This document shows, in pieces, positions 13,843 to 30,826 of a stretch of DNA of 48,911 nt. Both the position numbers and the translations under genes were made by a program. Under the pieces are notes generated by a model that saw only the letters and a list, made by a program, of their open reading frames with translations, was not told the DNA's origin and ran no database searches. Every line of letters starts with the position of its first letter. Position 1 is the stretch's first letter. The stretch comes from an uncultured Candidatus Saccharibacteria bacterium. Its GTDB lineage: Bacteria; Patescibacteriota; Minisyncoccia; Portnoybacterales; UBA2143. The stretch lies in assembly GCA_964420115.1 (NCBI GenBank), contig CAYQQO010000001.1:5778-54688 (forward strand), given 5' to 3'.

Positions 13843-13852
13843 AACAAAAATT

Positions 13853-15730
13853 ATGTGCGGCATTAATGGATTTAATTTTAACCAACCGGATTTGATTCGG
13901 CAGATGAATAAGAGGATTGGTCATCGCGGTCCTGACTTTGAAGATGTTTATTTAACTGATGATTTTTCTTTGGGGCATGTTCGTTTATCAATAATTGATT
14001 TGTCGGAAAAAGCTAAACAACCGATGTTTAATGAGGATAAATCGCTAGCTTTGGTTTTCAACGGAGAAATTTACAATTACAGAGAATTAAAAAATGATTT
14101 AGAAAAAAGAGGCCATCGTTTTTTGAGTCAGTCAGATTCAGAAATTATTTTACACCTTTATGAAGATTTAGGCGTTGATTGTCTAAAAAAGTTAAATGGG
14201 ATGTTTGCTTTTGCTGTTTTGAATATTAATAAAGGGGAAGTGTTTTTGGCTCGCGATAGAATAGGTATAAAGCCTCTTTATTATTATTTTAGCCGCTCGG
14301 CGGGAAAAAACGGGGGAGCTAAGTTTATTTTTTCCTCTGAAATAAAAGGAATTTTAGAGCACAATATTGAAAGAGAAATTAGTATGGAGGCCTTTAATCA
14401 TTACTTCCGCCTTCATTATATCCCGCATCCTTATACAATTTTTAAAAATATTTATAAAATCCCCCCAGCCAGTTATTTGCTTTTAAAAAACAACCAGCTA
14501 ATCATTAAGAAATACTGGCGAATAAATGATTACAGCGATTTAGAATCCGAAGACGAGATTATAGAAAAAATACAATACTTAATGGAAGATTCTGTTAGAA
14601 GGCAGCTTATTTCTGATCGGCCATTGGGCCTCTTTTTGTCAGGCGGGGTTGATTCTACCTCTATTTTAGGGACAATGCGCCAGTTGGGGCACCAAAAGAT
14701 AAAGACATTTTCTGTTGGTTTTGATTTTGATTCTGACTATTACAATATTGATTTTAATCTGGCTAAAAAAATAAGCCGGCATTACCAGACAGACCATCAC
14801 GAGTTTTTAGTCAGCGGTCGCGATATGCTGAAAAATATAGAAAAAGTTGTTTACCAGATGGACGAGCCAATAGCCAACGCTACTCAAATTGTTACCTATC
14901 TTTTGTCAAAATACACTCGCCAGGAAGTGGCTGTTGTTTTGGGCGGGGACGGCGGAGACGAGCTTTTCGGCGGCTATAAACGGTATGCTTACAGTCAGCT
15001 GGCCGGCAAATGGCAATTAATCCCCCTGTTTTTGAGAAAAAACATAATTGCTAAAATGCTTATTGATTCATCGGGAAAATATTTAGGGAAAGGAGATTTA
15101 TTGGATAAACTCAATGTGCCGCCCGGGGCAGAAAAGTACTTAATGTTTATGTCGCAGAAAGATAATGTTTTAAAAGAAGTTTTAAAAGAAAATTATTTTG
15201 AAAAAGATTTAACAAAAGAATTTTTCCAAGATAAATATTTTGATAAATTTTCAGGAGATGATTTTGAAAAATATTTTATGCTGGTTGATTTACAAAGCTG
15301 GTTGGTTGATGAATCATTGATGAGAACAGATAAAATGACCATGGCTTTTGGTTTGGAAGAAAGAGTGCCTATTTTGGATCATCGCTTGGTGGAGCTATCA
15401 GCAAAAATCCCAAGCTGTTTAAAGCTCAAAAGCGGCGGAAAGCATATTTTTAAAAAAGCAATGGGAGAACATTTGCCTGATTATGTTGTTAATGCCCCTA
15501 AAAGAGGATGGTTTTCGCCTGTTGCCAAGTGGCTTAGGACTGACTTGAAAGATTTTGCTTACCAAGTTTTGTCTGAAAGCTACTGTCCTAAAACAAATGA
15601 TTATTTTGATTTTAAGGGGATTAGAAATATATTGGATGATCATATAGAGAAGAAGCGCTATAATCTGACTGCTCTTTTAGTTTTAATTACTTGGCAGGTT
15701 TGGGCAAGGCAGTATTTGTCCCGCCAATAG
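13853..15730 (+). CDS. asnB: Asparagine synthase (glutamine-hydrolysing) family amidotransferase, 625 aa
   Basis: The start was moved to the in-frame ATG that gives the obligatory N-terminal Met-Cys (MCGINGF) of Ntn amidotransferases. PP-loop LFLSGGVDSTS. The track ORF begins 72 nt earlier, inside the previous gene. Confidence 0.85.
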   Translation: MCGINGFNFNQPDLIRQMNKRIGHRGPDFEDVYLTDDFSLGHVRLSIIDLSEKAKQPMFNEDKSLALVFNGEIYNYRELKNDLEKRGHRFLSQSDSEIILHLYEDLGVDCLKKLNGMFAFAVLNINKGEVFLARDRIGIKPLYYYFSRSAGKNGGAKFIFSSEIKGILEHNIEREISMEAFNHYFRLHYIPHPYTIFKNIYKIPPASYLLLKNNQLIIKKYWRINDYSDLESEDEIIEKIQYLMEDSVRRQLISDRPLGLFLSGGVDSTSILGTMRQLGHQKIKTFSVGFDFDSDYYNIDFNLAKKISRHYQTDHHEFLVSGRDMLKNIEKVVYQMDEPIANATQIVTYLLSKYTRQEVAVVLGGDGGDELFGGYKRYAYSQLAGKWQLIPLFLRKNIIAKMLIDSSGKYLGKGDLLDKLNVPPGAEKYLMFMSQKDNVLKEVLKENYFEKDLTKEFFQDKYFDKFSGDDFEKYFMLVDLQSWLVDESLMRTDKMTMAFGLEERVPILDHRLVELSAKIPSCLKLKSGGKHIFKKAMGEHLPDYVVNAPKRGWFSPVAKWLRTDLKDFAYQVLSESYCPKTNDYFDFKGIRNILDDHIEKKRYNLTALLVLITWQVWARQYLSRQ

Positions 15731-17600: not shown

Positions 17601-18260
17601 ATGTATATGAAAAAATTTTTTGATTACACCAAACAAATATTTAGGGGGAAAAGCATTTATCGGATATTATTTAACTGGCAGGTGGAAAAACACTGCCGTG
17701 ATCTTGACGGCCTTTGCCTTGATTTGGCTGCTGGCGGGGAACCAAGTTATTACAATTATTTGTCTTTTTCAAAAGAAGCTAAATTAATTAAAGCTGATAA
17801 CAGCGAATTAAAAATATCCGATATGCGTTTGGACTTTAACCAGCCGCTGGCTTTAAAGGATAATTCTTTTGACAATGTTCTTTTTTTTAACGCAGTTTAT
17901 ATTGTCAGAAAGCCCGAAGCTCTTTTTAGAGAAATGCACCGCGTTTTAAAAGAAAACGGCCGCCTTTTTGTTTCTTCTCCTTATATTCTTAATGAAGCAA
18001 AGGAGCCGGATGATTTCAGGCGTTTAACTTCTCAAGGATTAGAGGAGGTTTTGAAAAACAGCGGCTTCCAAAAATTTGAAATAATCCCCTTTGGCAACAG
18101 GTTTACTGCCGCCGCTTTTCTGCTTAATTGTTTTTTTCTTTTTAATGTTGTTCGTTTTTTTGCTTGCGGTTTGGCTATTCTTTTGGATTATTTAGTCCCT
18201 AAAAACATTAAGAGGCGGCATCCTTGCCCTTTGGGGTACTTTATCATTGCTAAAAAATGA
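17601..18260 (+). CDS. Class I SAM-dependent methyltransferase with a hydrophobic C-terminus, 219 aa
   Basis: Motif I LCLDLAAGGE. Post-II segment VLFFNAVYIVRKPEALFREMHRVLKENGRLFVSSP. C-terminal TM-like segment AAAFLLNCFFLFNVVRFFACGLAILL. Confidence 0.7.
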   Translation: MYMKKFFDYTKQIFRGKSIYRILFNWQVEKHCRDLDGLCLDLAAGGEPSYYNYLSFSKEAKLIKADNSELKISDMRLDFNQPLALKDNSFDNVLFFNAVYIVRKPEALFREMHRVLKENGRLFVSSPYILNEAKEPDDFRRLTSQGLEEVLKNSGFQKFEIIPFGNRFTAAAFLLNCFFLFNVVRFFACGLAILLDYLVPKNIKRRHPCPLGYFIIAKK

Positions 18261-19402
18261 AAATATACTATATAAACAATACTCGTTTGCCGACAGAGAG
18301 GGCTCATGGCTTGCAAATTATGAAAACGTGCCAGGCGCTGGCTGACAAAGGCGTTTTTTTGGAATTAATTATTCCCCGGCGCTTTAATAAAATTAAAGAA
18401 AACCCCTTTGATTATTACGGAATTAAAAGTAGTTTCAAAATAAAAAAAATATTTTCTTTAGATATAACTTTCTTGGGCAAGTTATTGGGTAAAACTGCTT
18501 TTTTAAGTCAATCTGCTTCTTTTGCCAAAATTGCTTTTCTTTTTGTTTTTTTAAAAGTAAAAAAAAGCGATATTATTTATTCGCGCCACTTTTTTACATT
18601 GCTTTTTGTCAGTTTTTTGGATAGAAAATTTATTTATGAAATGCACACTTTCCCAAAAAAATACTTTTGGCACAAAAGAGTTTTTAAAAAATCATTCGGC
18701 ATAGTGGCAATTACTAACGGGCTTAAAAATAAATTAGTTGAGAAGGGGATTCCAGAGAATAAAATATTGGTTTTGCCCGATGGTGTAGATTTAAATCATT
18801 TTAATATTAATTTATCAAAAGCAGACTGCCGTCAGAAAGTCAATCTTCCAATTGATAAAAAAGTAATTTTGTACAGCGGGCATTTGTATAACTGGAAAGG
18901 CGGACAAACACTGGCTAAGGCGGCAGGATTTTTTGGCAATGACTATCTTTTTGTTTTTGTCGGCGGGACAAAAGAAGATATTAAAAGGTTTAAAAAAAGA
19001 ATATCAGCTTTTAAAAATATTATGCTCGTTGGCCATCAGCTGCACAAAAGTATCCCCTATTGGTTAAAGGCGGCTGATCTTCTTGTTTTGCCTAATTCCG
19101 GCAAAATGAATATTTCTAAATACTGGACATCGCCAATGAAGATGTTTGAATATATGGTCAGCAAAAGGCCGATTACAGCTTCTGATTTGCCTTCAATTAG
19201 AGAGGTCCTTAACGAAAACAACGCTTTTTTGGTTAAGCCAGACAACGAGAAATCATTGGCCGAAGGGATTAAATATTGTTTAAACAATTTGGATTTTTCC
19301 GAAAAAATATCAGAACAGGCCTTTAAAGACGTACAAAAATACAGTTGGGATAAAAGAGCAGAAAAATTTTTAAGTTTTATTAAAAAGGAAACAAAAAAAT
19401 GA
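18257..19402 (+). CDS. GT4-like glycosyltransferase, 381 aa
   Basis: GHLYNWKGGQTL and SPMKMFEYMVSKRPITASDLPSIREVL, a variant of the E-x7-E region. Confidence 0.7.
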   Translation: MKIYYINNTRLPTERAHGLQIMKTCQALADKGVFLELIIPRRFNKIKENPFDYYGIKSSFKIKKIFSLDITFLGKLLGKTAFLSQSASFAKIAFLFVFLKVKKSDIIYSRHFFTLLFVSFLDRKFIYEMHTFPKKYFWHKRVFKKSFGIVAITNGLKNKLVEKGIPENKILVLPDGVDLNHFNINLSKADCRQKVNLPIDKKVILYSGHLYNWKGGQTLAKAAGFFGNDYLFVFVGGTKEDIKRFKKRISAFKNIMLVGHQLHKSIPYWLKAADLLVLPNSGKMNISKYWTSPMKMFEYMVSKRPITASDLPSIREVLNENNAFLVKPDNEKSLAEGIKYCLNNLDFSEKISEQAFKDVQKYSWDKRAEKFLSFIKKETKK

Positions 19403-20490
19403 GAAAAAGCTTAGTTATTAATCAGGAGCAAATCGCTGATGTTAAAAACATTCTCAACCGGGCATATTACCCTTTAGACGGCTTTTTAAGAAAAAAGGAC
19501 TTTATAAGCGTTGTTTCTAATATGCGCTTGTCAGGCGGGCAGGTTTGGCCTATTCCTATTGTTTTAGATGCAGGGAGAGGTCAGGCGATTGATTCTAAAA
19601 AAGAAAAAGAATTAAATTTAATTGGTCCTGATAAAAAGCCCGTTGCCTTGTTAAAAGAAATAGAAATATACAAGTATAATAAAAGATTTTTAGCAGAGAA
19701 TGTCTTTGGCACATTAGATGAGAATCATCCCGGGGTGGAAAATATTTTTAAAATGAACAACTACTTAATTGGCGGCCGCATTGAAAAAGCAAAAGATTTA
19801 ATGGGAAAGAATAAGAGGGTTTCTCTTTTTGACAAATATAATTTGACTCCTTCCCAGACAAGGGATATCTTTAAAAGAAGGGGGTGGCGGAAAATAGTTG
19901 CTTTTCAGACAAGAAATATTCCTCATCGCTCACACGAAGCGCTTCAGAAATTAGCCTTAAGGCAAGTTGATGGTCTGTTTGTTCAGCCAGTTATCGGCTG
20001 GAAAAAAACAGGCGATTTTTTAGATGATGTTATAATCAAGAGTTACGAAATTTTGGTTGACAGATATTATCCGAAGGGAAAAGTTCAATTAGGTATTTTG
20101 CCCCTTAAAATGAGATACGCCGGACCAAGAGAAGCGATTTTTCACGCTTTAATAAGAAAAAACTATGGTTGCACCCATATGATTGTTGGAAGAGATCATG
20201 CCGGCATAGGTAATTATTATTCTTCATTTGCCGCCCAGGAAATTTTTAGTAATTTTCTGCCGGAGGAAATCGGTATTGATATAGTTAAGTTTGATAATTT
20301 TGTTTATTGCCAGATGTGTAAAAAATTTATTTCTCAAAGCAAATGTTCTCATTTAGATAAGGATAAATTATTTTTAAGCGGGACAAAAATAAGAGAATTG
20401 ATTAAAGAAGGACAGCCACTGCCTAAAAGATTAATTAGGAAGGAAATTAGCGATTTACTGCTTAATTACCCTAGCCCATTTGTTGATTAA
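19399..20490 (+). CDS. sat: Sulfate adenylyltransferase (ATP sulfurylase), 363 aa
   Basis: FQTRNIPHRSHEALQ (QxRNPxHxxH-type) and IVGRDHAGIG motifs. N-terminal PUA-like region. Confidence 0.9.
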   Translation: MRKSLVINQEQIADVKNILNRAYYPLDGFLRKKDFISVVSNMRLSGGQVWPIPIVLDAGRGQAIDSKKEKELNLIGPDKKPVALLKEIEIYKYNKRFLAENVFGTLDENHPGVENIFKMNNYLIGGRIEKAKDLMGKNKRVSLFDKYNLTPSQTRDIFKRRGWRKIVAFQTRNIPHRSHEALQKLALRQVDGLFVQPVIGWKKTGDFLDDVIIKSYEILVDRYYPKGKVQLGILPLKMRYAGPREAIFHALIRKNYGCTHMIVGRDHAGIGNYYSSFAAQEIFSNFLPEEIGIDIVKFDNFVYCQMCKKFISQSKCSHLDKDKLFLSGTKIRELIKEGQPLPKRLIRKEISDLLLNYPSPFVD

Positions 20491-20543
20491 CTTATAAAAT
20501 TGCGTCAGTGGCTTTATTTTATAAAAAGATTGCGAGGTAATAT

Positions 20544-21083
20544 ATGTGTAAAAATAAAGGATTTGTTTTGTGGTTTACCGGTCTTTCTATGGCCGGCAAA
20601 ACTACGGTAGCTAATAAGGTTTACAAAAAATTAAAAGAAAGGGGGTTGCGTGTAGAGAAGCTGGACGGCGATGTTGTCCGCCGCGGCCTGACAAGAGATT
20701 TAGGTTTTTCTCCAAAAGACAGGGATATGAATATAGAGAGAGTCGCTTTTGTGGCTAAAATACTAAGCAGAAATAATATTGGCGTTGTTTCCTCTTTTAT
20801 TTCTCCCTACAGAAAGCACAGACAGATGGTAAAAAGAAGTTCTCTTAATTTTATTGAGGTTTATGTTAACGCTCCTTTGGAAGTTTGTGAAAAAAGAGAT
20901 AAAAGAGGATTGTATAAAAAAGCTCGTTTGGGTCAAGTTAAATATTTTACTGGGATTTCCGATCCCTATCAGCCTCCTCTTGGGCCAGATATAGAACTTT
21001 TAACCGACAAAGAGACAGTTAATCAGAGCGCTGATAAGGTAATTAGTTATCTCTGCGCTAAAAAATTAGCGCCAAAAATTTAG
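20544..21083 (+). CDS. cysC: Adenylyl-sulfate (APS) kinase, 179 aa
   Basis: P-loop WFTGLSMAGKTTVA, then LDGDVVRRGL and SFISPYRKHR. GAGG Shine-Dalgarno 7 nt upstream of the start. Confidence 0.9.
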   Translation: MCKNKGFVLWFTGLSMAGKTTVANKVYKKLKERGLRVEKLDGDVVRRGLTRDLGFSPKDRDMNIERVAFVAKILSRNNIGVVSSFISPYRKHRQMVKRSSLNFIEVYVNAPLEVCEKRDKRGLYKKARLGQVKYFTGISDPYQPPLGPDIELLTDKETVNQSADKVISYLCAKKLAPKI

Positions 21084-21917
21084 ATTGAGACCAATTAATT
21101 TTTCCAGTTTCTTAATATCTTGCTGGTAAACTTTTAACAGCCTTTTTCTTGTTGACGGGTCAATTTGCGGATATTTGCCAATGGGGCTTGATATGATTTT
21201 ATCTATTAGTTCTATTATTTTTTTAAAACCTATTTTTTTGAAAAAATTAGCGACAATAACCCCGAATTTATATGAATTTATTTTTTTTATCGCTTTCCCC
21301 ATAGTTTTTTTAGCTAAAGCCGCGCGATAGTTTTTTGATGGGTTTTTAGTTTTCAACAAAGATGGAGGAATAAATTGGTCATTAACATTTAAAAACTGAT
21401 AGACCTTTTTGATAAAAGCTTTTGGGTCCCTGTTGATTTCTTCGTAAATTAAGATTAATATATTTTGGCGGGGGAATAATTTGAAATAGTTTGAGAGATA
21501 AGAATAATAAAACCCTCTTTTAGTTATTTCTGGATGTTTTTCAAGATATTCCTCAAAGGATTTGTTTTTGAATTCAAAGCTGGCGACTGACAGATAATTG
21601 GAAAAAGCTCTTTCTATCGGGTTTCTTAAACAAATAATCAGCTTTGTATCTGGGAAATGTTTTTTTATTTGTTTGGCGGTCGGAAAGGAGCTGTAATAGC
21701 CGGCATCGTATTCGCCCACTATTTGTTCTTTTTGGCAAAGGAAATGTTTGCTGTACCAATTGAGTCCGTAGTTATATGAGGGAGTGCCGAAAAAATGGAC
21801 TTCCTTTGGGGAAGACAAGCAAATTTGAGGGTGCTCTTTCAGGCAGTTGGCGATCCATGTGGTCCCTGCCCTTTGCACTCCGATGCCTATAAAATCAATT
21901 TTAAAACTATTTTTCAT
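21066..21917 (-). CDS. PAPS-dependent sulfotransferase, 283 aa
   Basis: 5'-PSB loop FIGIGVQRAGTTWI and 3'-PB motif LRNPIERAFSNY. Its 3' end overlaps the cysC 3' end by 18 nt. Confidence 0.8.
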   Translation of the reverse strand: MKNSFKIDFIGIGVQRAGTTWIANCLKEHPQICLSSPKEVHFFGTPSYNYGLNWYSKHFLCQKEQIVGEYDAGYYSSFPTAKQIKKHFPDTKLIICLRNPIERAFSNYLSVASFEFKNKSFEEYLEKHPEITKRGFYYSYLSNYFKLFPRQNILILIYEEINRDPKAFIKKVYQFLNVNDQFIPPSLLKTKNPSKNYRAALAKKTMGKAIKKINSYKFGVIVANFFKKIGFKKIIELIDKIISSPIGKYPQIDPSTRKRLLKVYQQDIKKLEKLIGLNLNFWR

Positions 21918-22107
21918 ATTCGCCTATATTTATTTATATCAACTTGTTTTTCCGGGGGTGGAAACAAGTTTTCATTCTTGCGCGCATTGTTATGTGAGTA
22001 AGCTCGTTTTCAAAGCCTTACAGACAGCTCTCTCATTTATTGCGTTAATCAAAGCATAAATAAGACATTTGGTAAAGTTCGCATTGAGAATATAGTAGTG
22101 TAATTTT

Positions 22108-23490
22108 ATGAAAATTTTATTCATTTTACCTAAAATTAATTCACCGACCAAATGGATAGTTGGCTTGGCGTACATGTCAGCAATTTTGAAAAAAGCCGGT
22201 TATCAAGTTGAATTATTGGAAGTTAACAAAAAAGAAGAGATTAAAAAAGTTGTCCCTTTAGTAAAATTGTGCCAACCAGCAATAATTGGCTTATCGGCAA
22301 ATTCTCATCAATACACATATGCTAAAGAAATAGCCAAGCAGATTAAATTAAACTTTAATATCCCTGTATTTTTAGGGGGCGTTCATGCTGCCTTAACGCC
22401 TGATCAGATTATTAAAGATGAAATTTTTGATGGAGTTTGTGTTGGAGAGGGCGAGAAGCCCTTTTTGGATTTAGTAAAAAGAATTGAAGAAGGCGAGGAT
22501 TACAGTGATGTATCTAATTTTTGGTTTTATTCGTCTGGTGGTTTTGTTAAAAACGATGTTGGCCCTCTAGTTTCTGATTTAGACGATTTGCCTTTACCTG
22601 ATATTTCTATTTTTAAATTTTACAACCAAGCTGGTCAAAGTGAAATCGTTCCCAGGTTTATTTTTTCTCGCGGCTGTCCCTTTAATTGCACTTATTGCTG
22701 TAATCACGTTTTCAAAAAAATTTATGCCGGTCATGGCAGATACCTAAGATTTAGAAGCGTTGACAAGGCCTTGGATGAAATTAGTTCGGTCAGAGAAAAA
22801 TATAATTTTAGTCATTTTAAAATTGATGATGACACCTTTTCTTTAAATAAAGATTGGTTGATTGAGTTTTGTAATAAATATAAAAAAAAGTTTGATATGA
22901 GCTTTGAGTGTAATATTAGGCCCGGTTCAGTAGATGAAGAAATATTACTCGCCTTAAAAGAAGCGGGTTGTAGTTTAATAAAAATTGGCCTGGAAACAGG
23001 CAATGAAGCCTTGAGAAAAGAAATACTTGGGCGTTCTATTACTAACCAAAATATTGTTGGGCTCTTCCAGTCAGCTAAAAAAGTTGGCTTAGATACTTTT
23101 TCTTTTAATATGATTGGAGTGCCCGGCGAGACAAAAGAAACTATAAAAGAAACCATTAATTTAAACGCCCAAGTTAAGCCAACTTTTATGCAGGTAACTG
23201 CCTTTTATCCTTATCTCGGGACTTTACTTGGCCAAAAATGCATTGACGAAGGGCTTATTGGTTCTTATCGGGTTGATTCATATATGGAAGAATCAATTCT
23301 AAGCTTGCCGAATTTGAGCGCTAAAGATATAAAAAGGGCGGTTAAAAATTTCCAGTTTAATGTCTATAAGAGCTATAGTATAGGGCGGGCCCTATTGGAA
23401 AAAAAGAGACATTTGAAAGGTTTTATTACCTCAAAGCCCTTTTTGGTAAAAATAATTAAGCCGGTTTATAAATTGATAAAATTTTCATGA
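22108..23490 (+). CDS. Cobalamin-binding (class B) radical SAM enzyme, 460 aa
   Basis: N-terminal B12-binding-type Rossmann region (IIGLSANSH...PVFLGGVHA). Cluster motif SRGCPFNCTYC (CX3CX2C). Confidence 0.8.
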   Translation: MKILFILPKINSPTKWIVGLAYMSAILKKAGYQVELLEVNKKEEIKKVVPLVKLCQPAIIGLSANSHQYTYAKEIAKQIKLNFNIPVFLGGVHAALTPDQIIKDEIFDGVCVGEGEKPFLDLVKRIEEGEDYSDVSNFWFYSSGGFVKNDVGPLVSDLDDLPLPDISIFKFYNQAGQSEIVPRFIFSRGCPFNCTYCCNHVFKKIYAGHGRYLRFRSVDKALDEISSVREKYNFSHFKIDDDTFSLNKDWLIEFCNKYKKKFDMSFECNIRPGSVDEEILLALKEAGCSLIKIGLETGNEALRKEILGRSITNQNIVGLFQSAKKVGLDTFSFNMIGVPGETKETIKETINLNAQVKPTFMQVTAFYPYLGTLLGQKCIDEGLIGSYRVDSYMEESILSLPNLSAKDIKRAVKNFQFNVYKSYSIGRALLEKKRHLKGFITSKPFLVKIIKPVYKLIKFS

Positions 23491-24914
23491 AAGTGGTTTT
23501 AGCGACAGCTCCCCGCGCTTTGGGAGAAATAGAAATGGCTGGTCTGCCCTTTTTGGGGGTGGGTTATTTAGCGTCTTATTTAGAAGAGGCCGGTCATAAA
23601 GCAGTAATTGTTGATTCCCACAGCGATAATTTAAGCGTGGAAAAAGCGGCAAAAAAAATTATTTCTTTTAATCCTGAAGTGGTTGGTGTGACAGCCACTA
23701 CTCACAACCGTCTGCAAGCTATCGCTTTAATAAAAACTTTAAAAAAAGAACAGCCTAATTTGTTAATTGTTGTTGGCGGCCCTCATTTTTCTTTAAGCGA
23801 CAAAGATGCGCTGAGTTCTGTTCCGGAAATTGATTGTGTTGTCAGGTATGAGGGGGAAATAACATTAAAAAAATTGTTGGATGTCTGGCCTGATGAAAAT
23901 AAATTAAAAAATGTTTTAGGGATTACTTACCGTAATAAAAAAGGTTCTGTTGTTTTTACTCCTGACAGGCCTTTTATAGAAAACTGGTCTAATTTGCCTT
24001 TTCCTGCTTGGCATCTTTACGATTTGGATAAATACCAAAAAAAAATTTATCAGACCGATTTCAGAACAATCGGCGTAATCTCGGCCCGCGGATGTCCTAA
24101 TGTTTGCACTTATTGCGCCAATGCCGCTTTTTGTAAATCAAAACTTCGCTTGCGCGATCCTAAAAATTTTGTTGATCAGTTGGAATTTCTAAAGAAAGAA
24201 TACGGCTTTGAAGGTTTTAATTTTTGGGACGATACTTTGACTGTTGTTAAAAGCCATGTTAAAGAGATTTGCCGTCAGATACTTAAAAGAAATCTAAATA
24301 TTAAATGGTATGCCCGGGCTCGGGTTAATACGGTTGATAAAGAAATTATTGAGTTAATGAGAAAGGCCGGCTGTATTAGGATAAGTTACGGCATAGAATC
24401 AGGCAGTCCGAGAATATTAAAGGTGATAAAGAAAAACATTACATTAGAGCAAGCCAGAGAAGCAATCGGTTTTTCTTCTCGGGCGGGCATGATTGTCAGT
24501 TTGAATTTTATTGTTAATTTGCCGACAGAAACAATGGATGATTTAAAAATGACAGCTGAATTAATAAAAGAGTTTAATCAAATGGAGCGGGTTAAGGCCA
24601 GTTATGGGTTTTTGCTTATTTATCCCGGAACAGAAGTGGAAAGATTTGCCAAGGAAAACGGCATTTTACCCAAAAATTTTTCTTGGAACAGCTCTCATCA
24701 AACAGAGAAATACAAGCTTATTAGCGAAGATCCCAGCGTTCCTTATATGGAATGGGAAGGCAAGAAAATAGAAACAGTTAAGGCCTTTATGGTTAAAAAT
24801 TTAAACACTAAAAGCGGCCTGATTAAAAAGGGGTATAAGAAATTAAAGCGGGTTAAATCATTAAAAGAGTTAAAAACCTTATCAAAGGCGGGAATTAAAT
24901 ATTTAAAAGGATAA
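23487..24914 (+). CDS. Cobalamin-binding (class B) radical SAM enzyme, 475 aa
   Basis: VVGVTATTHN...IVVGGPHFS, then ARGCPNVCTYC. ATGA overlap with the upstream gene. Confidence 0.8.
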   Translation: MKVVLATAPRALGEIEMAGLPFLGVGYLASYLEEAGHKAVIVDSHSDNLSVEKAAKKIISFNPEVVGVTATTHNRLQAIALIKTLKKEQPNLLIVVGGPHFSLSDKDALSSVPEIDCVVRYEGEITLKKLLDVWPDENKLKNVLGITYRNKKGSVVFTPDRPFIENWSNLPFPAWHLYDLDKYQKKIYQTDFRTIGVISARGCPNVCTYCANAAFCKSKLRLRDPKNFVDQLEFLKKEYGFEGFNFWDDTLTVVKSHVKEICRQILKRNLNIKWYARARVNTVDKEIIELMRKAGCIRISYGIESGSPRILKVIKKNITLEQAREAIGFSSRAGMIVSLNFIVNLPTETMDDLKMTAELIKEFNQMERVKASYGFLLIYPGTEVERFAKENGILPKNFSWNSSHQTEKYKLISEDPSVPYMEWEGKKIETVKAFMVKNLNTKSGLIKKGYKKLKRVKSLKELKTLSKAGIKYLKG

Positions 24915-25789
24915 TGAGCAAAGAATTCAAAATTGATTTTATCGGCATCGGCGCGCCAAGATGCGCTACTGGCTGGGTTTTTAATATTTTAAAAGAGCAC
25001 AAAGAGGTTTGTTTTTCTTTTGTTAAAGAAACACAATTTTTTAATATGGATTATAATTACGAAAAAGGATTGGCTTATTATGAAAACTTTTTTAAAGGTT
25101 GTCCAGAAGGGCAAATAAAAGGGGAGTTTACCCCTGCTTATTATTTGCAGGAGAAAACAGCTCAACGCATTAAAAATAATTTTCCTCGGGTTAAATTATT
25201 AATAGTTTTAAGAAATCCGATGCAAAGAGCATATTCTCATTACCTTTTTAACAAAACAAGAGGCGTCCCGGTTAAATCTACCTTTGAAAAAGAGATAGAG
25301 AGAAATCCCCAATATATAAATGATGGATTTTACTATAGGCATTTATCTAAATTTTTAAAATATTTTAATTCTAATCAAGTATTGGTTGTTATTTATGAAG
25401 ATATAATTTTAAAGCCGGAAAAAACAGCTGAAAAAATCTATAAGTTTTTAAATATAGATTATAAATTTATTCCTTCCTCTCTTAATAAAATAATTAATTC
25501 TTACAACAGTAGTTATTTGAAAATCCCCCTAATTAACCAGATAATGCAAAAAATTTGGAGAAAAACACGAGGATATCAATTAGGGAGAAAAGCGCTTATT
25601 TTTTTTAAATTGTTGGGGCTTAATAAAGTTGCTAAGTTTGTTTTAGAGGTAAACCGGGCTGAAAAAAAATCAGGTTCTGCTAAAGAGCAGATTAGATCGG
25701 GGACTAATAAAAAGCTAAAAGAAATATTTGAAAGCGATATTAAAAAATTAGAAAATTTTATAGGGAGAGATTTAAGTTTTTGGCAATAA
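24914..25789 (+). CDS. PAPS-dependent sulfotransferase, paralogue of 21066-21917, 291 aa
   Basis: FIGIGAPRCATGWV (variant 5'-PSB loop) and LRNPMQRAYSHY (3'-PB). The N- and C-termini align with the minus-strand paralogue (KIDFIGIG..., DIKKLE.FIG..L.FW). Confidence 0.75.
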   Translation: MSKEFKIDFIGIGAPRCATGWVFNILKEHKEVCFSFVKETQFFNMDYNYEKGLAYYENFFKGCPEGQIKGEFTPAYYLQEKTAQRIKNNFPRVKLLIVLRNPMQRAYSHYLFNKTRGVPVKSTFEKEIERNPQYINDGFYYRHLSKFLKYFNSNQVLVVIYEDIILKPEKTAEKIYKFLNIDYKFIPSSLNKIINSYNSSYLKIPLINQIMQKIWRKTRGYQLGRKALIFFKLLGLNKVAKFVLEVNRAEKKSGSAKEQIRSGTNKKLKEIFESDIKKLENFIGRDLSFWQ

Positions 25790-25791
25790 AT

Positions 25792-27621
25792 ATGTGCGGA
25801 ATCGCTGGGTTTACAGGGAGAAAAAATGATGTTCGCCTAGCCATTATGGTCAGGCGGTTGATTCATCGGGGCCCTGACGATGAAGGTTTTTATAGTGATG
25901 AAAATGTTTCTTTGGGGATGAGAAGATTGAGTATTATTGATTTGTCGACCGGGCGCCAGCCAATTTTCAGCGAAAATGAAAATGTTGTTACTGTTTTTAA
26001 CGGGGAGATATATAATTTCTTAAAATTAAGAAATGATTTGGTTAAAAAGGGGCATAGGTTTTCTACTAATTCTGATACAGAGATAATCGTCCATCTTTAT
26101 CAGGAATTAGGAAATAAGTTTGTTGACCAATTAGATGGCATGTTTGGTATTGCTCTTTGGGATAAGAAAAAAAAGAAATTAATTTTAACCCGCGATCGCT
26201 TTGGTAAAAAGCCATTGTATTATACTCAAATCGGCCGACAGCTTGTTTTCGCTTCGGAGATTAAGTCCATTCTGGAATACGGCGTTAAAAAAGAAATAAA
26301 TTTTGAAGCTCTTCATCATTATTTTTCTCTCAAACACATTCCTGATCCTTTGACAATTTACAAGAATGTTTATTCCTTGCCTGCTGGCAGTTGTTTGGTT
26401 TTCCAAAAAGAAAAAATAAAAATAAAAAAATATTGGCAGCTTGATTACAACACTATAAATCCCAGAAGCGAGTTAAAAATAATTGATAAATTGGATTATT
26501 TATTAAACCAAGCAGTCGCTAAAAGATTAGTCAGCGATGTGCCCATCGGCGCTTATTTGAGCGGTGGCTTGGATTCCAGTTTAGTGGTGGCTCTTTTTAG
26601 CCGATTAGCCCAAGGAAGAATTAAGACATTTTTCATGACTTATCAAGGCGATTTTTCAGGCAAAGAAAATGATCGGAAATTTGCCGGACAAATCGCTAAA
26701 AAGTATAAAACCGACCATTATGAGTATGTCATGAAATATCAAGAGCTGGCTGATTCTTTGGAAGGTGTTTTATCTGCTTTTGATCAGCCTTTTGCCGGAG
26801 TTATTTCCACTTATTTTATTTCACAATTAATTAAAAAGCATGTTAAGGTAGCAATTTCCGGAGATGGCGCAGATGAGTTGTTTGCCAGTTATTTAGTAGC
26901 CCGTTTAGCTTTCCCTATAGATAATTATTTAAAAAATAACGGGAAAGACATAGAAGCGCTAAAGCCATTTAATGAGCAAATAGATTTTTTAAAGAGTATC
27001 GCTGATAAGCCAGAATGGCGCTGGCGCTCTAAATTAGTTGTTTTTAACGAGAAAGAAAAAAGAGAGTTGTATCAGAATAAATTATTAGAACAGCTTGATA
27101 AATGCAGTACGGTGAAGTTATACCGGAATTATTTTAGATCCTCTACAGCCACGGATCCTTTAAACAGAGTTTTGGATGTTGACTGCAAAACCGTTTTGAC
27201 GGATCAGGTTTTGCCTTTTGTTGACCGTTTATCTATGGCTCATTCTATTGAAGTGCGTTGTCCTTTTTTGGATTATCAGTTGGCTGAATATGCGGCGGGC
27301 CTCCCGGGTCAATGGAAAATAAGGCAAGGGGAGACAAAATATATTCTTAAGAAATTAGGCGAGAGATATTTACCCCAAAAATTAGTTTATCGGCCCAAAG
27401 AGGGTTTTATTATGCCAATAAATGACTGGTTGATGAATAAAATGGAAAAGCAAGTAAAAAATATTTTATCAGTCAGGCGTTTGGAAAAACATAATCTCTT
27501 TAATCAAGATATTGTCAAAAATTTAGTTGAGTGTTATTATTCTAAGCGGCTCATTAACAATTCAAATAAAATCTGGAGTCTGCTTATGTTCCAGCTTTGG
27601 TGGGAAAACAATATTAAATAG
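25792..27621 (+). CDS. asnB: Asparagine synthase family glutamine amidotransferase, 609 aa
   Basis: Start set to MCGIAGF (Met-Cys). PP-loop AYLSGGLDSS. The track ORF starts 12 nt earlier. Confidence 0.85.
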   Translation: MCGIAGFTGRKNDVRLAIMVRRLIHRGPDDEGFYSDENVSLGMRRLSIIDLSTGRQPIFSENENVVTVFNGEIYNFLKLRNDLVKKGHRFSTNSDTEIIVHLYQELGNKFVDQLDGMFGIALWDKKKKKLILTRDRFGKKPLYYTQIGRQLVFASEIKSILEYGVKKEINFEALHHYFSLKHIPDPLTIYKNVYSLPAGSCLVFQKEKIKIKKYWQLDYNTINPRSELKIIDKLDYLLNQAVAKRLVSDVPIGAYLSGGLDSSLVVALFSRLAQGRIKTFFMTYQGDFSGKENDRKFAGQIAKKYKTDHYEYVMKYQELADSLEGVLSAFDQPFAGVISTYFISQLIKKHVKVAISGDGADELFASYLVARLAFPIDNYLKNNGKDIEALKPFNEQIDFLKSIADKPEWRWRSKLVVFNEKEKRELYQNKLLEQLDKCSTVKLYRNYFRSSTATDPLNRVLDVDCKTVLTDQVLPFVDRLSMAHSIEVRCPFLDYQLAEYAAGLPGQWKIRQGETKYILKKLGERYLPQKLVYRPKEGFIMPINDWLMNKMEKQVKNILSVRRLEKHNLFNQDIVKNLVECYYSKRLINNSNKIWSLLMFQLWWENNIK

Positions 27622-27633
27622 GAGGATAATAAT

Positions 27634-28725
27634 ATGAAAGTAGTTCTTTTTGCTTTAACTGGTTTTGGCAACGGGGTTTTAGATGTTTTGTTGGAAAGCG
27701 GATGCCAAGTAGGAGCTGTTTTTACCAGAGTTGAGAAGGGTTCTTTCCCTTATTACAGAGAAAAAAACATTTTCCGCTATGCCAAAGAAAGGGGCGTTCC
27801 CGTCTACGCTGAAATAAACTGGACTGATATTTATAGAATTATCAACGGCATTTCGCCCGATCTTCTTTTGGTGGCGACATATTATCGGATAATCCCCCAA
27901 CAAATAATTACCATGACTCCCTTGGCTGTTAATCTGCATCCTTCCCTTTTGCCTAAATATAGGGGAGCTACCCCTTGTTTTTGGGCACTTTTTAACAAAG
28001 AGAAGGAAACAGGGGTAACAGCCCATTTTCTTACAGAAAAGCCTGATGCCGGAGATATGCTGATTCAAAGAAAGTTGGCAATAAGAGCAGATGAGGACGA
28101 GCGCTCTTTAAGAAAAAGATTATCTCAATTGAGCGCAGATGTCGCGCGGGAGCTAATATGGCAAATTAGAGAAGATCAGCTTAGTCCCGTACCTCAAGAA
28201 GAAGCCAAGGCAACTTATTGCTCAAAATTTAATAAAGAGTCGGTAAGAAAAAGAAAGGGGGTTGTGGTCGTTAATCTTAAAAAAAACCAGCAATGGCTGA
28301 CGGATTATGTTTTTCTTCGCAATAAGCACCTCCAAGCTCTGCTTAGCGAAAAAGTTGATTTGGCTGCAACAAAAGAGTGGCTAAGGCAAAATGATGTTGA
28401 GTTGTACGGAATAATTGATGGCGGAATTTTCCAAGGGGCTGTTGTTATATACATTAAGGAAAATAAAGGGGAGGGGGAGGTGGCTTTTTTTACTTCTAAT
28501 ATTGGTTGTGGCTATGGAGGCAGACTGTTGAAAATAACTGATGTTGTAGCAGTGGAGCGAAGGCTTTCGAAGCTTTGCGCCTGGACTAGGGATAATAATG
28601 TGCCAGCTATCAATGTTTTTCGACGAAACAGATATTTTTTGGTTAAGAAAACAGAAAAAACTTATCGAGGCGAAAAGATAAAAGGATATCTTTTTGAGAA
28701 ATACAAGAAAGGAGACAGAAAATGA
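27634..28725 (+). CDS. Bifunctional-looking formyltransferase (N-terminal) fused to a GNAT acyltransferase-like domain (C-terminal), 363 aa
   Basis: Formyltransferase core VNLHPSLLPKYRGATPCFWAL plus KPDAGDM, giving an Asn/His/Asp triad pattern. C-terminal about 130 aa carry the GNAT motif A-like NIGCGYGGRLL and NNVPAINVFRRNRYFLV. Strong AGGAGG Shine-Dalgarno upstream. Confidence 0.7.
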   Translation: MKVVLFALTGFGNGVLDVLLESGCQVGAVFTRVEKGSFPYYREKNIFRYAKERGVPVYAEINWTDIYRIINGISPDLLLVATYYRIIPQQIITMTPLAVNLHPSLLPKYRGATPCFWALFNKEKETGVTAHFLTEKPDAGDMLIQRKLAIRADEDERSLRKRLSQLSADVARELIWQIREDQLSPVPQEEAKATYCSKFNKESVRKRKGVVVVNLKKNQQWLTDYVFLRNKHLQALLSEKVDLAATKEWLRQNDVELYGIIDGGIFQGAVVIYIKENKGEGEVAFFTSNIGCGYGGRLLKITDVVAVERRLSKLCAWTRDNNVPAINVFRRNRYFLVKKTEKTYRGEKIKGYLFEKYKKGDRK

Positions 28726-29636
28726 GTAAAGCTGTTTCAAGTGATAAGGAAGCTGAAAGACTGGAAGATGCCGGATGTTTCCCCAGGGTGGTTCTTATTG
28801 ATACAATCAACTTTTGCAATCTGCGCTGTTCTATGTGCGGCCGTCAGGAAATGGCAAGGAAAGGCGGTATTATGAAAACACCGCTTTACCAGAAAATCAT
28901 TAACGAGATAACCGCCAAAGACAAAAGCGTCAGGGTTTGGCTTGTCTTTTTCGGCGATCCCTTTATGTTGAAAGGGAAATTCCGCGGCTACATGGGATAT
29001 GCTAAAGAGAAGGGGCTGACTGACGTGGTGGTTAACACCAATGGCAATCTGATGAATGAAGAGCGCTCTCGGGAAATGATTGATGCCGGCTTAGACGCTG
29101 TTTATATCGGTATTGACGCTGTAAGCGCGCCTGTTTACAGTAAACTGCGGATAGGCGGTAATTTACCTAAAGTTGTCGCTAACGTCAAGCGGTTGATTGA
29201 GTTAAAAAAAGAAACAGGAGCGGATAAGCCCGAGGTTTTTGTCCAGTTTGTTGAAATGAGGGAAAACAGCCATGAAAAACAGAAGTTCATTGACTTCTGG
29301 ACAGGCCAGGGGGCGATTGTCAAGGTCCGGCCAAAAGTAAGCTGGGCAGGGACAGTAGCGGCTGACAATCTGAAGGCGGGTGAAGAAAGACACCCCTGCT
29401 ACTGGGCCATGCGGACAATGAATATCCTTTTTGACGGCCGGGTTTGCCTCTGCGCTGTTGACTACGACGGCAGGTTTATTGCCGGCGACATCAGCAAGGA
29501 ATCGCTGGAAAATGTCTGGCTTAACGGGCTGGGGCAAATCCGCAAGATGCAAAGAGAGGGAGAGTATTCTTCTCTGCCGTCTATTTGCCGCTATTGTTTG
29601 GACTGGCAGGCGGCCAAGGCGCAATTCCGTCAATAA
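28722..29636 (+). CDS. Radical SAM enzyme with a truncated SPASM/twitch-type C-terminal domain, 304 aa
   Basis: NFCNLRCSMCG (CX3CX2C). C-terminal C-x12-G-x4-C (CYWAMRTMNILFDGRVCLC) followed only by CRYC. Confidence 0.8.
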   Translation: MSKAVSSDKEAERLEDAGCFPRVVLIDTINFCNLRCSMCGRQEMARKGGIMKTPLYQKIINEITAKDKSVRVWLVFFGDPFMLKGKFRGYMGYAKEKGLTDVVVNTNGNLMNEERSREMIDAGLDAVYIGIDAVSAPVYSKLRIGGNLPKVVANVKRLIELKKETGADKPEVFVQFVEMRENSHEKQKFIDFWTGQGAIVKVRPKVSWAGTVAADNLKAGEERHPCYWAMRTMNILFDGRVCLCAVDYDGRFIAGDISKESLENVWLNGLGQIRKMQREGEYSSLPSICRYCLDWQAAKAQFRQ

Positions 29637-29674
29637 GTTTTGCGGCGGGATGAGCCAAGTTTGGCGGGAAGAGA

Positions 29675-29709
29675 GGGCTTTCTTGTTGACAAGAAGAGAA
29701 AGCCCTTTT
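29675..29709 (+). terminator. Hairpin plus T-run between the two SPASM genes
   Basis: GGGCTTTCT (29675-29683) pairs with AGAAAGCCC (29697-29705) and is followed by TTTT. Confidence 0.5.
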
Positions 29710-29714
29710 ATATT
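29686..29714 (+). promoter_or_regulatory. Consensus-like sigma-70 promoter TTGACA-N17-TATATT, overlapping the hairpin
   Basis: TTGACA at 29686-29691 sits in the hairpin loop. TATATT is at 29709-29714. Confidence 0.45.
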
Positions 29715-29787
29715 TGTATAAAAATACAAGTTGTTCCTTGAATAAAAAAACTATGCCGATAAATTTCCAATGGAGAAGGAGAAAGCT

Positions 29788-30753
29788 ATGCGAATAAATC
29801 ATTTGCCAGAAGAGTTTAAGATTAAAGAAGGCGCTGAAGAATTCCCATTAATGGTTGTTCTTTCCTTCGTTTATATTTGCAACGCCAGGTGTCCACAATG
29901 TCCTTATACGCAAACCAATATCAGAGCTGACTATAAAGATGCTCTTTATATGCCGGAGGAGCTTTTTAAAAAAATCGCTGATGAATGCGGCCAGTATCAG
30001 GCATATATTCGTCTTTCTGGAGGAGGCGAGCCTCTTCTTCATCCTAAAGCGCTTGATTTGGTTGAGTACGCCAAGGAAAAAAGGGCTAAGATCGGGCTTA
30101 TCACCAACGGCTCCTTAATAGATGGAAAGAAAGCTGGTCGACTGCTGGCTTGCGGGACTGATATGATTGAATTTAGTGTTGATGCGGCTGATAAAGAGAC
30201 ATATAGCCAGTTGCGCAAGGGGCTTAGTTTCGGCAAATTGGTTGAAAATGTCAGATATATTGTTCAAAAAAGAGATCAGTTAAATAGCCCGAGCAGGATA
30301 ATCGCCAGCATTATCAATCAAAAAGCTGTTGAGGGAAAGCTTGATTCTGTTGTTAGTTTTTGGGGAGAAATTGTTGATGATGTTCAGGTTAGAAAGTATC
30401 TGACCTGGGGTTATCTTAACGATCACTCGGCCGATTCAAGGCCATATTTGCCGCCAGAGCAGAGAATTCCCTGTCCTTGGCTGTTTGAAAGATTAAATAT
30501 TGACAGCAGGGGGGATGTCACTCTTTGCGGAGAGGACATCGCCTTTAAAGAAAAGTTCGCTAATGTCTATAAGCAGCCAATCAAGGAAATATGGCGCGGC
30601 CCTGTTTTTGAGAAAGCGCGTCGTCTGCATCTGAGATGTCAAGGCGACCAAATCCCGCTTTGTCGGAATTGCCCTGACTGGCAGTATCGGTCTTGGACGC
30701 ACAACTATTGGAAGCTGGAGGCTGAGAGAAAGGCTGATATCAACAAAAAGTAA
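29788..30753 (+). CDS. Radical SAM enzyme with a truncated SPASM/twitch-type domain, paralogue of 28722-29636, 321 aa
   Basis: ICNARCPQCPY (CX3CX2C). CPWLFERLNIDSRGDVTLC (C-x12-G-x4-C), then CRNCPDW. I prefer the ATG at 29788 because AGGAG lies 6 nt upstream; the track start at 29770 is the alternative. Confidence 0.8.
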   Translation: MRINHLPEEFKIKEGAEEFPLMVVLSFVYICNARCPQCPYTQTNIRADYKDALYMPEELFKKIADECGQYQAYIRLSGGGEPLLHPKALDLVEYAKEKRAKIGLITNGSLIDGKKAGRLLACGTDMIEFSVDAADKETYSQLRKGLSFGKLVENVRYIVQKRDQLNSPSRIIASIINQKAVEGKLDSVVSFWGEIVDDVQVRKYLTWGYLNDHSADSRPYLPPEQRIPCPWLFERLNIDSRGDVTLCGEDIAFKEKFANVYKQPIKEIWRGPVFEKARRLHLRCQGDQIPLCRNCPDWQYRSWTHNYWKLEAERKADINKK

Positions 30754-30787
30754 TGTTTATCGGCTTAAATACCTGCCTAAGACAGGC

Positions 30788-30826
30788 AAAATCCTCGTTG
30801 ACAAAAACGGGGATTTTTCTTATCAT
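30788..30826 (+). promoter_or_regulatory. Second hairpin with an embedded promoter: TTGACA-N17-TATCAT
   Basis: Stem AAAATCCTCG (30788-30797) pairs with CGGGGATTTT (30808-30817), with one G-U pair. The loop contains TTGACA (30798-30803). TATCAT is at 30821-30826. Confidence 0.4.

Follow-up and report, generated by a model that had tools for sequence, protein, structure and literature searches.

What is activated sulfate used for when the genes that make it lie inside a large glycan-assembly cluster? The question is raised by six genes at positions 19399-25789 of a DNA stretch from an uncultured Patescibacteriota bacterium (contig CAYQQO010000001.1, positions 5,778 to 54,688; 48.9 kb, about 35% GC; the whole stretch is referred to as the window). 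They comprise an ATP sulfurylase gene (sat), an adenosine 5'-phosphosulfate (APS) kinase gene (cysC), two sulfotransferase genes (ST1 and ST2) and two genes for B12-binding radical S-adenosylmethionine (rSAM) enzymes (B12A and B12B). The analysis indicates that Sat, CysC, ST1 and ST2 probably form a cytoplasmic module, in which the first two make 3'-phosphoadenosine 5'-phosphosulfate (PAPS) and the two sulfotransferases sulfate two positions of the cluster's glycan before export. An earlier note on this DNA had placed the six genes here, and open reading frames (ORFs) were found at the following positions:

19399-20490, plus strand: sat, 363 amino acids (aa), PUA_2 and ATP-sulfurylase domains
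20544-21083, plus strand: cysC, 179 aa, APS kinase PF01583
21066-21917, minus strand: ST1, 283 aa, Sulfotransfer_1 PF00685 (E 3.8e-21)
21918-22107: divergent intergenic region between ST1 and B12A, 190 bp
22108-23490, plus strand: B12A, class B B12-binding rSAM enzyme, PF02310 and PF04055, motif CPFNCTYC
23487-24914, plus strand: B12B, PF02310 and PF04055, motif CPNVCTYC
24914-25789, plus strand: ST2, 291 aa, Sulfotransfer_1 PF00685 (E 2.6e-19)

PAPS supply

All 39 ORFs of at least 100 aa in the window were scanned against Pfam and NCBIfam, and the domain E-values of sat, cysC, ST1 and ST2 were far beyond chance. Sat matches PF01747 (E 4e-87, 291 bits) and PF14306 (123 bits) and exceeds the curated cutoffs of NF003166 (436 bits versus 387) and TIGR00339 (349.5 versus 322.95). 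Its motifs QTRNIPHRSH (aa 170-179, nucleotides (nt) 19906-19935) and GRDHAG (aa 264-269, nt 20188-20205) were both located as the earlier note described them. The closest solved structure, the ATP sulfurylase 8a8d of Methanothermococcus, aligns end to end with 335 bits and conserves both motifs. Sat is thus predicted to be a stand-alone, homo-oligomeric-type ATP sulfurylase that converts sulfate and ATP to APS; no CysD or CysN domain was found by Pfam among the 39 ORFs, the sulfurylase being of the Sat type. Its best non-self match is a metagenomic protein with 60% identity, and many of its nearest homologs are Sat-CysC fusions.

CysC matches PF01583 (E 1.4e-59) and TIGR00455 (225.7 versus a cutoff of 138.7). 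The expected P-loop (GLSMAGKTT, aa 13-21) and LDGD (aa 40-43) are in place, together with FISPY (aa 85-89), and the closest structure, 5cb6, aligns over the full length with 193 bits and conserved active-site motifs. CysC is therefore the predicted APS kinase, forming PAPS from APS and ATP.

The start of sat overlaps the stop of the upstream glycosyltransferase family 4 gene GT4f (18257-19402) through ATGA, and sat is accordingly predicted to be translationally coupled to this glycosyltransferase gene. Further overlaps join B12A to B12B (4 nt), B12B to ST2 (1 nt) and ST2 to the amidotransferase gene AsnB2 (10 nt). Because of the sat/GT4f overlap and those of the B12A-B12B-ST2-AsnB2 run, the sulfation genes appear to be transcribed with the glycan genes. 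ST1 is the sole minus-strand gene here. It is convergent with cysC, the two overlapping by 18 nt, and divergent from B12A, from which it is separated by the 190-bp intergenic region; this region is presumed to hold the promoters of ST1 and B12A. A promoter-consensus scan of positions 18000-26500 gave 31 sites versus 28.3 expected from shuffled sequence, which is not above chance.

Sulfotransferase sequences

ST1 and ST2 score 76.1 and 70.1 bits against PF00685 (cutoff 22), match no NCBIfam family and share 40% identity over their full length. The 5'-phosphosulfate-binding (5'-PSB) and 3'-phosphate-binding (3'-PB) motifs attributed to them, next to sat-cysC, were located in both: ST1 carries the 5'-PSB GVQRAGTTW, KEVHFF and the 3'-PB LRNPIERAFSNY, and ST2 carries GAPRCATGW, KETQFF and LRNPMQRAYSHY. 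When searched by sequence against the PDB, both retrieved 3rnl first (E 2.9e-24 for ST1, 1.1e-16 for ST2), followed by heparan-sulfate 3-O-sulfotransferases (3-OSTs) and the sulfotransferase domain of NDST1.

Conservation was determined from an alignment (A1) of 23 diverse sulfotransferase homologs. The 3'-PB residues Arg98 and Ser106 of ST1 (Arg100 and Ser108 in ST2) are invariant, and Thr19 of the 5'-PSB and Glu39 are at least 90% conserved, so that the PAPS-contact residues, whose loss together with a complete assimilatory pathway the earlier note had named as telling against its proposal, are retained. ST2 keeps Arg100, Ser108, Thr19, Trp21 and Glu39. In the alignment of ST1 with 3-OST-1, Glu39 is matched with the Glu of 'E-V-H-F-F', a segment of 3-OST; we take this Glu to be the 3-OST catalytic base.

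The two paralogs differ in their relatives. ST1 has orthologs of 53-58% identity in three of the loci described below (L082, L083 and L002), and its best non-self match is a metagenomic protein with 58% identity. For ST2, the best database homolog has 43-44% identity; no ortholog was found among 5.8 billion proteins or in the syntenic relatives, and ST2 is an orphan lineage. The metagenome scan gave no relative closer than 41%. The family as a whole is large, with 17,516 clusters at 50% identity (E <= 1e-30). It includes multi-domain members, namely P0280 (1235 aa), P0321 (744 aa), P0357 (573 aa) and P0371 (599 aa); six stretches of P0280 match the sulfotransferase profile, pointing to sulfotransferases fused in tandem.

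Neither a transmembrane (TM) segment nor a signal peptide was found in Sat, CysC, ST1, ST2, the B12-rSAM enzymes or the cluster's deacetylase. Sulfation must therefore take place in the cytoplasm, the site of PAPS synthesis, and precede export, acting on a nucleotide- or lipid-linked intermediate.

Structure models and the activity of ST2

AlphaFold2 models reached a mean predicted local distance difference test score of 90.8 for ST1 and 84.9 for ST2, the latter being weak at residues 190-260. The comparison with Foldseek, which had been proposed as a check, gave the same picture for both confident models: 3rnl came first, followed by about 20 chains of heparan-sulfate glycan sulfotransferases at query-based TM-scores (TMq) of 0.64-0.70 (one NDST1 chain at 0.58) and E-values of about 1e-11 to 1e-12. 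The top matches of ST1 were 3rnl, 3-OST-1/3/5 and NDST1, and ST2 gave the same neighbours. After a clear gap followed cytosolic SULTs, tyrosyl-protein sulfotransferases and CurM/olefin-synthase sulfotransferases, at TMq of about 0.4 and E-values of 1e-6 or worse. The best 50 PDB matches listed for each model were sulfotransferases without exception. From these models, ST1 and ST2 are predicted to be cytoplasmic PAPS-dependent sulfotransferases with a heparan-sulfate-sulfotransferase-like fold.

The closest solved structure by both sequence and fold is 3rnl, from Alicyclobacillus acidocaldarius, which aligns over the full length including the C-terminal helix; being a structural-genomics entry without known substrate, it gives no functional information. 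The best characterised structural neighbours are 3-OST-1/3/5 and NDST1, which act on sugar residues inside a glycan chain and share with ST1 and ST2 the 5'-PSB, the 3'-PB and the aligned Glu. However, identity in the Foldseek alignments is only 19-25%, the animal enzymes are type II membrane proteins facing the Golgi lumen whereas ST1 and ST2 are soluble and cytoplasmic, and ST1 and ST2 have Arg in place of the 5'-PSB Lys and, unlike the animal enzymes, a helical insertion of about 60 residues at about 190-250. Membership of ST1 and ST2 in the 3-OST/NDST group was rejected on account of this low identity, of the bacterial 3rnl as best PDB match and of the His of the 3-OST E-x-H motif, which the family does not conserve. 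The insertion is a Lys-rich, hydrophobic three-helix element modelled with lower confidence (ST1 aa about 190-250, nt about 21168-21350; ST2 aa about 190-260), and it could serve as a membrane-association or acceptor-lid element for lipid-linked substrates.

The 5'-PSB loop of ST2 (PRCATGW, against QRAGTTW in ST1) had been described as divergent, and its altered sequence raises the possibility that ST2, or both sulfotransferases, are catalytically dead. A census of the loop in 132 family members was carried out. The catalytic basic residue is Arg in 68 and Lys in 59, the Gly position is Gly in 65 and Ala in 64, the first Thr/Ser is Thr in 106 and Ser in 23, the second is Thr in 91, Ser in 31 and Gly in 4 (Gly20 of ST2 included), and the Trp is kept in 129. 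ST2 thus has Gly where 122 of the 132 members have Thr or Ser, and its lack of any ortholog above 44% identity, its aberrant GC content of 29% and its poorly defined model over residues 190-260 would also fit a dead paralog. Against this, all other loop positions are in common states, GIGAPRCATTW occurs verbatim in P0244 and P0027, with a single Thr-to-Gly exchange setting the ST2 loop apart from it, and the Gly recurs in three other members. The loop thus cannot count as a sign of inactivity, and its supposed divergence lies within the variation of the family. The residues named above are kept, and the ST2 ORF is intact and tightly packed in the B12A-B12B-ST2-AsnB operon. A dead ST2 is the least probable of the alternatives considered here.

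A mosaic junction and the B12-rSAM pair

Two relatives, L082 and L089 (loci are designated by L and a number), share with the window the backbone GT4d-GT4e-deacetylase-MT1-GT4f, MT being methyltransferase, with 52-60% protein identity, and all three diverge right after GT4f:

Window: Sat-CysC, then ST1 (minus strand)-B12A-B12B, then a heterogeneous block from ST2 (29% GC) to SPASM1 (48% GC)
L082: an ST1 ortholog (58% identity, opposite strand, 18-nt convergent overlap) and a B12B ortholog (72%), no Sat-CysC
L089: Sat-CysC (60% and 68% identity) at the same junction, then directly GT2b-AsnB3-MT2-MT3, no ST1 or B12B

The variable hotspot corresponds to positions 19399-37517, and the window has an extra block of 12 kb in comparison with L082 and L089. 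The GC content of the genes in this block, from 0.29 (ST2) to 0.48 (SPASM1), suggests mixed origins. Since Sat-CysC and ST1-B12B occur separately in the two syntenic relatives, they are independent cassettes at this hotspot.

No gene of the neighbourhood is better conserved than B12B, whose L082 ortholog directly adjoins that of ST1. The two genes were gained and lost together in the three loci compared (n=3) and were kept as a divergent pair in one relative, L082. No ortholog of B12A was found in L082. The two sulfotransferases do lie on opposite strands and bracket the B12 pair, but the idea that they form a functional sub-module is only partly supported: the support comes from ST1-B12B and does not extend to B12A, which L082 does not conserve, or to ST2, which has no ortholog. 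For the B12-rSAM enzymes, the NCBIfam equivalog matches (HpnJ, BchE, ApyD and PhpK) were all far below their cutoffs.

This pairing bears on the possibility that sulfation is transient, with sulfate used as a leaving group in the manner of CurM or olefin synthase (OLS) and lost during formation of an unusual sugar, perhaps with the help of the adjacent B12-rSAM enzymes, so that the mature glycan would be unsulfated. Other pathways are well known to use sulfation for activation, the ST1-B12B pair is conserved in L082 and missing as a whole from L089, and L083, L086 and L002 have a sulfotransferase gene next to, or almost next to, a B12-rSAM gene. The CurM and OLS domains are, however, distant from ST1 and ST2 (TMq 0.42-0.46, E about 1e-5), and a B12-rSAM neighbour was found only in L002 and L012 among the 80 genome loci described in the next section. 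As B12-rSAM genes are frequent in such clusters (four in the window, three in L082), the adjacency may be incidental. Transient sulfation is considered very unlikely, and stable sulfation of the glycan is preferred.

PAPS genes and sulfotransferases in relatives

Eighty genome loci around relatives of ST1 were fetched and searched with the window proteins. The alignment A1 contained no conserved stretch of 7-10 residues, and the genome scan was seeded by a narrower alignment, A2. Named matches of Sat and ST1 came from Nealsonbacteria, Paceibacterota, WWE3, Kuenenbacteria, Falkowbacteria and Spechtbacterales, which belong to the Patescibacteria or candidate phyla radiation (CPR); more distant ones came from other phyla and from a few archaea of the DPANN and Asgard groups. 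These named matches point to a Patescibacteria-like host. Of the 14 loci labelled as Patescibacteria, 4 had PAPS-cycle genes no more than 10 kb from the sulfotransferase, versus 1 of the 66 others (Fisher p = 0.003), the latter being that of Virgibacillus necropolis.

The linkage takes several forms. There is a tight run of cysC, cysQ and sulfotransferase genes in L003, CysC adjoins a sulfotransferase in L004, and L047 has CysQ and a sulfotransferase followed by Sat-CysC. The Patescibacteria contig of L005 carries, at L005:3256-11754, a pair of CysC copies, of which one is partial, and a tandem array of at least five ST1-family genes; it looks like a sulfotransferase expansion, and the partly fragmentary sulfotransferase matches suggest pseudogenes or frameshifts. 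Locus L083 includes Wzy_C/TPR, Bac_transf, APS kinase, an Inositol_P (CysQ-like) gene, a sulfotransferase, a glycosyltransferase family 2 (GT2) gene, B12-rSAM, PMT_2, Wzx and a second sulfotransferase, and L087 includes a CysQ-like gene, Sat, CysC, Wzx, a sulfotransferase, methyltransferases and GT4. Bac_transf, a Sat-CysC fusion, a sulfotransferase and Wzx are consecutive in L090. The metagenome loci L095, L133, L136 and L145 have extra CysC or CysQ neighbours, and the three closest Sat homologs examined all lie within glycan clusters.

L085 and L086, both Patescibacteria glycan clusters with an ST1-family member, contain sulfotransferases, a CysQ-like gene, PMT and Wzx, and a Sat fusion lies next to a sulfotransferase. 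In this fusion (L085:5938-8118 and L086:2651-4819; 722-726 aa) the ATP sulfurylase is joined to a full N-terminal pyruvate-kinase barrel (PF00224, 194-199 bits), which might regenerate ATP locally or act on APS. No APS kinase was found within 10 kb of it in either locus.

The only cultured organism among the fetched loci is Virgibacillus necropolis WLG-406 (L075, NZ_CP084992.1:1547755-1568645). Within 20 kb it has Sat and CysC, a same-family sulfotransferase (30% identity) and another sulfotransferase, besides Wzx, GT4 and DegT; it differs from the window in being a Firmicute, in its CapD/E/F/G-type sugar genes and in having, between Sat and CysC, a transporter of the CitMHS/Na-sulfate-symporter type that has no counterpart in the window. 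This capsule-type locus would be a tractable model for the sulfotransferase family.

These loci also allow an assimilatory role to be weighed, in which Sat and CysC would serve ordinary sulfate reduction for cysteine, would lie in the glycan cluster by chance, and the sulfotransferases would draw on the housekeeping PAPS pool. The closest solved relative of Sat is indeed the assimilatory ATP sulfurylase of Methanothermococcus thermolithotrophicus, the Sat-CysC genes of L089 and L091 lie in glycan clusters without a nearby sulfotransferase of the same family, and about 65 of the 66 non-Patescibacteria loci have a sulfotransferase without local PAPS genes, which evidently uses a housekeeping supply there. 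However, no PAPS/APS reductase or sulfite reductase (cysH, cysI, cysJ, sir) was found by Pfam among the 39 ORFs, in agreement with the absence of such genes claimed by the earlier note, nor in the ten annotated relatives' loci, so that the reductases linked to sat-cysC in an assimilatory operon occur in neither. The predicted coupling of sat to a glycosyltransferase gene, and the relatives in which Sat and CysC travel with CysQ-like phosphatases, sulfotransferases, flippases and priming transferases, also argue against such a role. To our knowledge, amino-acid biosynthesis is generally lacking in Patescibacteria, which counts in the same direction. The assimilatory explanation is therefore judged unlikely. 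The use of PAPS as donor for sulfation, as first proposed, is supported by the retained PAPS-binding residues, the glycan-sulfotransferase-like models and the recurrent linkage in Patescibacteria loci.

The surrounding glycan cluster

The Pfam and NCBIfam scans revealed a single, very large glycan cluster that takes up the window from about 6.7 kb onwards (referred to as the 40-kb cluster), and nearly all genes of the window lie on the plus strand. Glycosyltransferase genes and genes for sugar modification lie on either side of Sat, CysC, ST1 and ST2. The window holds 14 glycosyltransferases (ten GT4, three GT2 and a weak PMT-like GT-C). Among the membrane proteins, two have 12 TM segments, namely a Wzy_C/TPR protein and a protein of 669 aa for which no match was found in the PDB, Pfam or NCBIfam; an LPG_synthase_TM protein is flippase-like. 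Among the tailoring genes are one for a polysaccharide deacetylase, one for a formyltransferase and three each for AsnB-like amidotransferases and S-adenosylmethionine-dependent methyltransferases, and further genes encode WbqC, a nucleotide-sugar 4,6-dehydratase, a DegT aminotransferase, two rSAM-SPASM proteins and, with B12A and B12B, four B12-binding rSAM enzymes. The features outside the sulfation genes are:

6766-48790, plus strand: glycan-assembly cluster (Pfam and NCBIfam scans, TM census)
176-742 and 907-1770: extracytoplasmic function (ECF) sigma factor and single-TM DUF5667 protein, preceding the secreted protein
2215-5892, plus strand: secreted 1225-aa protein, signal peptide MNKIQKPISILTSITTTVWLSGAAMLVPMSAMA/AP
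13781-15730, 25780-27621 and 38547-40400: full-length AsnB-like glutamine amidotransferases (Asn_synthase and GATase)
28722-30753: two adjacent rSAM-SPASM genes, GC 0.44-0.48, adjoining the formyltransferase and WbqC genes
41938-43353 and 47336-48790: further B12-binding rSAM genes

The three AsnB-like enzymes presumably amidate uronic acid carboxylates, and the glycan may therefore carry amide as well as sulfate groups. The best NCBIfam matches of the two rSAM-SPASM genes are sub-threshold ones to maturase families. One of the further B12-binding enzymes, B12C, has the cluster motif CPYGRCTFC with CX5CX2C spacing, the usual one being CX3CX2C. The glycan clusters of relatives have 1-3 B12-rSAM genes each; as far as we know, this lineage is not expected to make cobalamin, yet four such genes lie in one cluster here.

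The 1225-aa protein, with its high content of Thr, Ser, Ala, Gly and Asp, gave no match in Pfam or NCBIfam, and its GC content (0.45) is above that of the cluster. As a candidate S-layer or surface glycoprotein, it could carry the glycan.

The same protein enters another explanation, that ST1 and ST2 sulfate something other than a glycan, for example a membrane lipid, a small metabolite or the side chain of a protein or peptide. This Ser/Thr-rich secreted protein would offer side chains, the closest structure, 3rnl, has no assigned substrate, and the sub-threshold family matches of the cluster's rSAM genes include the peptide-modifying ApyD and methyltransferases of ribosomally synthesized and post-translationally modified peptides. 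On the other hand, tyrosyl-protein, cytosolic and polyketide sulfotransferases reach a TMq of only about 0.4, compared with about 0.68 for glycan sulfotransferases, and ST1 and ST2 are cytoplasmic whereas the candidate protein is secreted. Across relatives, moreover, the genes constantly found beside this family encode glycosyltransferases, flippases and enzymes that modify sugars; precursor peptides and lipid genes are not among these constant neighbours. A non-glycan acceptor is thus improbable, about to the same degree as the assimilatory role, and the cluster's glycan is kept as the preferred acceptor.

Proposed pathway and points against it

In the proposed pathway, Sat would adenylate sulfate to APS and CysC would phosphorylate APS to PAPS. 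ST1 and ST2 would then use PAPS to sulfate one sugar position each, the two positions being different. The target is most likely a hydroxyl, although it could be an amine that the cytoplasmic deacetylase of the cluster has exposed. Their substrate would be the nascent nucleotide- or lipid-linked glycan of the neighbouring GT4 and GT2 enzymes, which would then be flipped and attached outside by the Wzy_C-type, PMT-like and flippase-like membrane proteins. We infer the use of PAPS for sulfation and not for assimilation, the cluster's glycan as acceptor, the persistence of sulfate in the final product, and which sugar and position are sulfated.

A more specific version, N-sulfation coupled to the neighbouring deacetylase as in NDST, was rejected: L089 keeps the conserved deacetylase-methyltransferase pair without a sulfotransferase, so that no specific link exists between deacetylase and sulfotransferase.

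Several observations weigh against the pathway. The main caveat is that the cassettes are separable in the syntenic relatives: L089 has Sat-CysC and no same-family sulfotransferase in its 16 kb, and L082 has ST1-B12B and no Sat-CysC in 18 kb. Similarly, L091 has Sat-CysC in a glycan cluster and no ST1-family ORF in 21 kb; a relaxed Pfam scan and a hidden Markov model built from A1 detected no hidden sulfotransferase among the ORFs without Pfam matches in L089 and L091. The supply had been called self-contained, which is correct for PAPS synthesis by sat-cysC but not for the whole cycle, as the window contains no sulfate transporter and no phosphatase for adenosine 3',5'-bisphosphate, both required for sustained flux. 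No recognisable priming phosphoglycosyltransferase and no Wzx flippase were found in the window either. A cysH or sulfite-reductase pathway may lie elsewhere in the genome, beyond the window, which covers 49 kb of a 121-kb contig, and the acceptor of ST1 and ST2 is a putative one, a point that also counts towards a non-glycan acceptor. With these points included, the cytoplasmic sulfation module is still considered the probable explanation.

A broader proposal is that modules of Sat, CysC, CysQ-like and heparan-sulfate-type sulfotransferase genes (the last sometimes five or six in tandem) are widespread cassettes of Patescibacteria/CPR glycan clusters and give variable, sulfated, glycosaminoglycan-like coats, ST1-B12B additionally making a new sulfated, radical-SAM-modified sugar. 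This is a reasonable possibility, but its chances are put at somewhat below even.

Patescibacteria/CPR are ultra-small, largely episymbiotic bacteria. If the sulfation predicted from the window is real, sulfated glycans extend to the CPR, whose surfaces must mediate host-cell attachment; under the broader proposal, a sulfated polyanion coat could govern this attachment or phage evasion, and such chemistry has not been reported for CPR. In metagenome surveys, sat-cysC in reduced genomes should not count as 'assimilatory sulfate reduction'. The sulfotransferase family has no characterised member, so a glycan substrate would annotate a large block of proteins and could supply enzymes for sulfated polysaccharides.

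Comparison with known systems

The concept that in-cluster PAPS supply together with sulfotransferases implies a sulfated glycan is established, and the gain from this locus is therefore one of breadth, not of principle. The earlier note had called sulfated bacterial glycans uncommon; they are less rare than that, and in-cluster PAPS genes have already been published (PMC11641403). In Vibrio sp. KMM 8419, second cysNDC copies and three sulfotransferases lie in the cluster of a sulfated capsule proven by nuclear magnetic resonance, and PAPS genes plus sulfotransferases in a polysaccharide cluster are described as a hallmark (PMC11641403). The same hallmark is found in the window, where it is known from the genes. 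Both clusters have their own PAPS-synthesis genes and several sulfotransferases. However, the Vibrio cluster is from a Gram-negative host and combines GTPase-coupled CysD/CysN and CysC with a Kps ABC-transporter, whereas the present one, in a Patescibacteria-like host, has a stand-alone Sat and Wzy_C/PMT-like machinery. It is also set apart by the B12-rSAM association, and its sulfated product is a predicted one.

A similar sulfated-polysaccharide cluster has been reported for Cobetia marina KMM 1449 (PMC11766843), and there are similar reports for Pontiella and Actinoplanes. Genetic proof that sulfotransferases yield a sulfated extracellular polysaccharide comes from synechan (xss) of Synechocystis PCC 6803 (PMC8205485), whose sulfotransferases likewise lie inside a polysaccharide cluster, there of the Wzx/Wzy type. 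The text of that paper makes no mention of PAPS or adenylyl-sulfate genes, and the host is a cyanobacterium with normal sulfate assimilation (PMC8205485). Our literature searches found no paper tying sulfotransferases or PAPS genes to glycans in Patescibacteria, CPR or Parcubacteria.

A dedicated sulfurylase/APS kinase pair that feeds a specific sulfotransferase, and not cysteine synthesis, is known from NodP/NodQ-NodH of rhizobia and RaxP/RaxQ-RaxST of Xanthomonas. These systems use CysDN/CysC-type enzymes, and what they sulfate is a lipo-chitooligosaccharide or a peptide tyrosine and not the glycan of a 40-kb cluster. Their CysD/CysN heterodimer, fused or linked to CysC, has no counterpart in the window, where the same logic is followed with another enzyme family.

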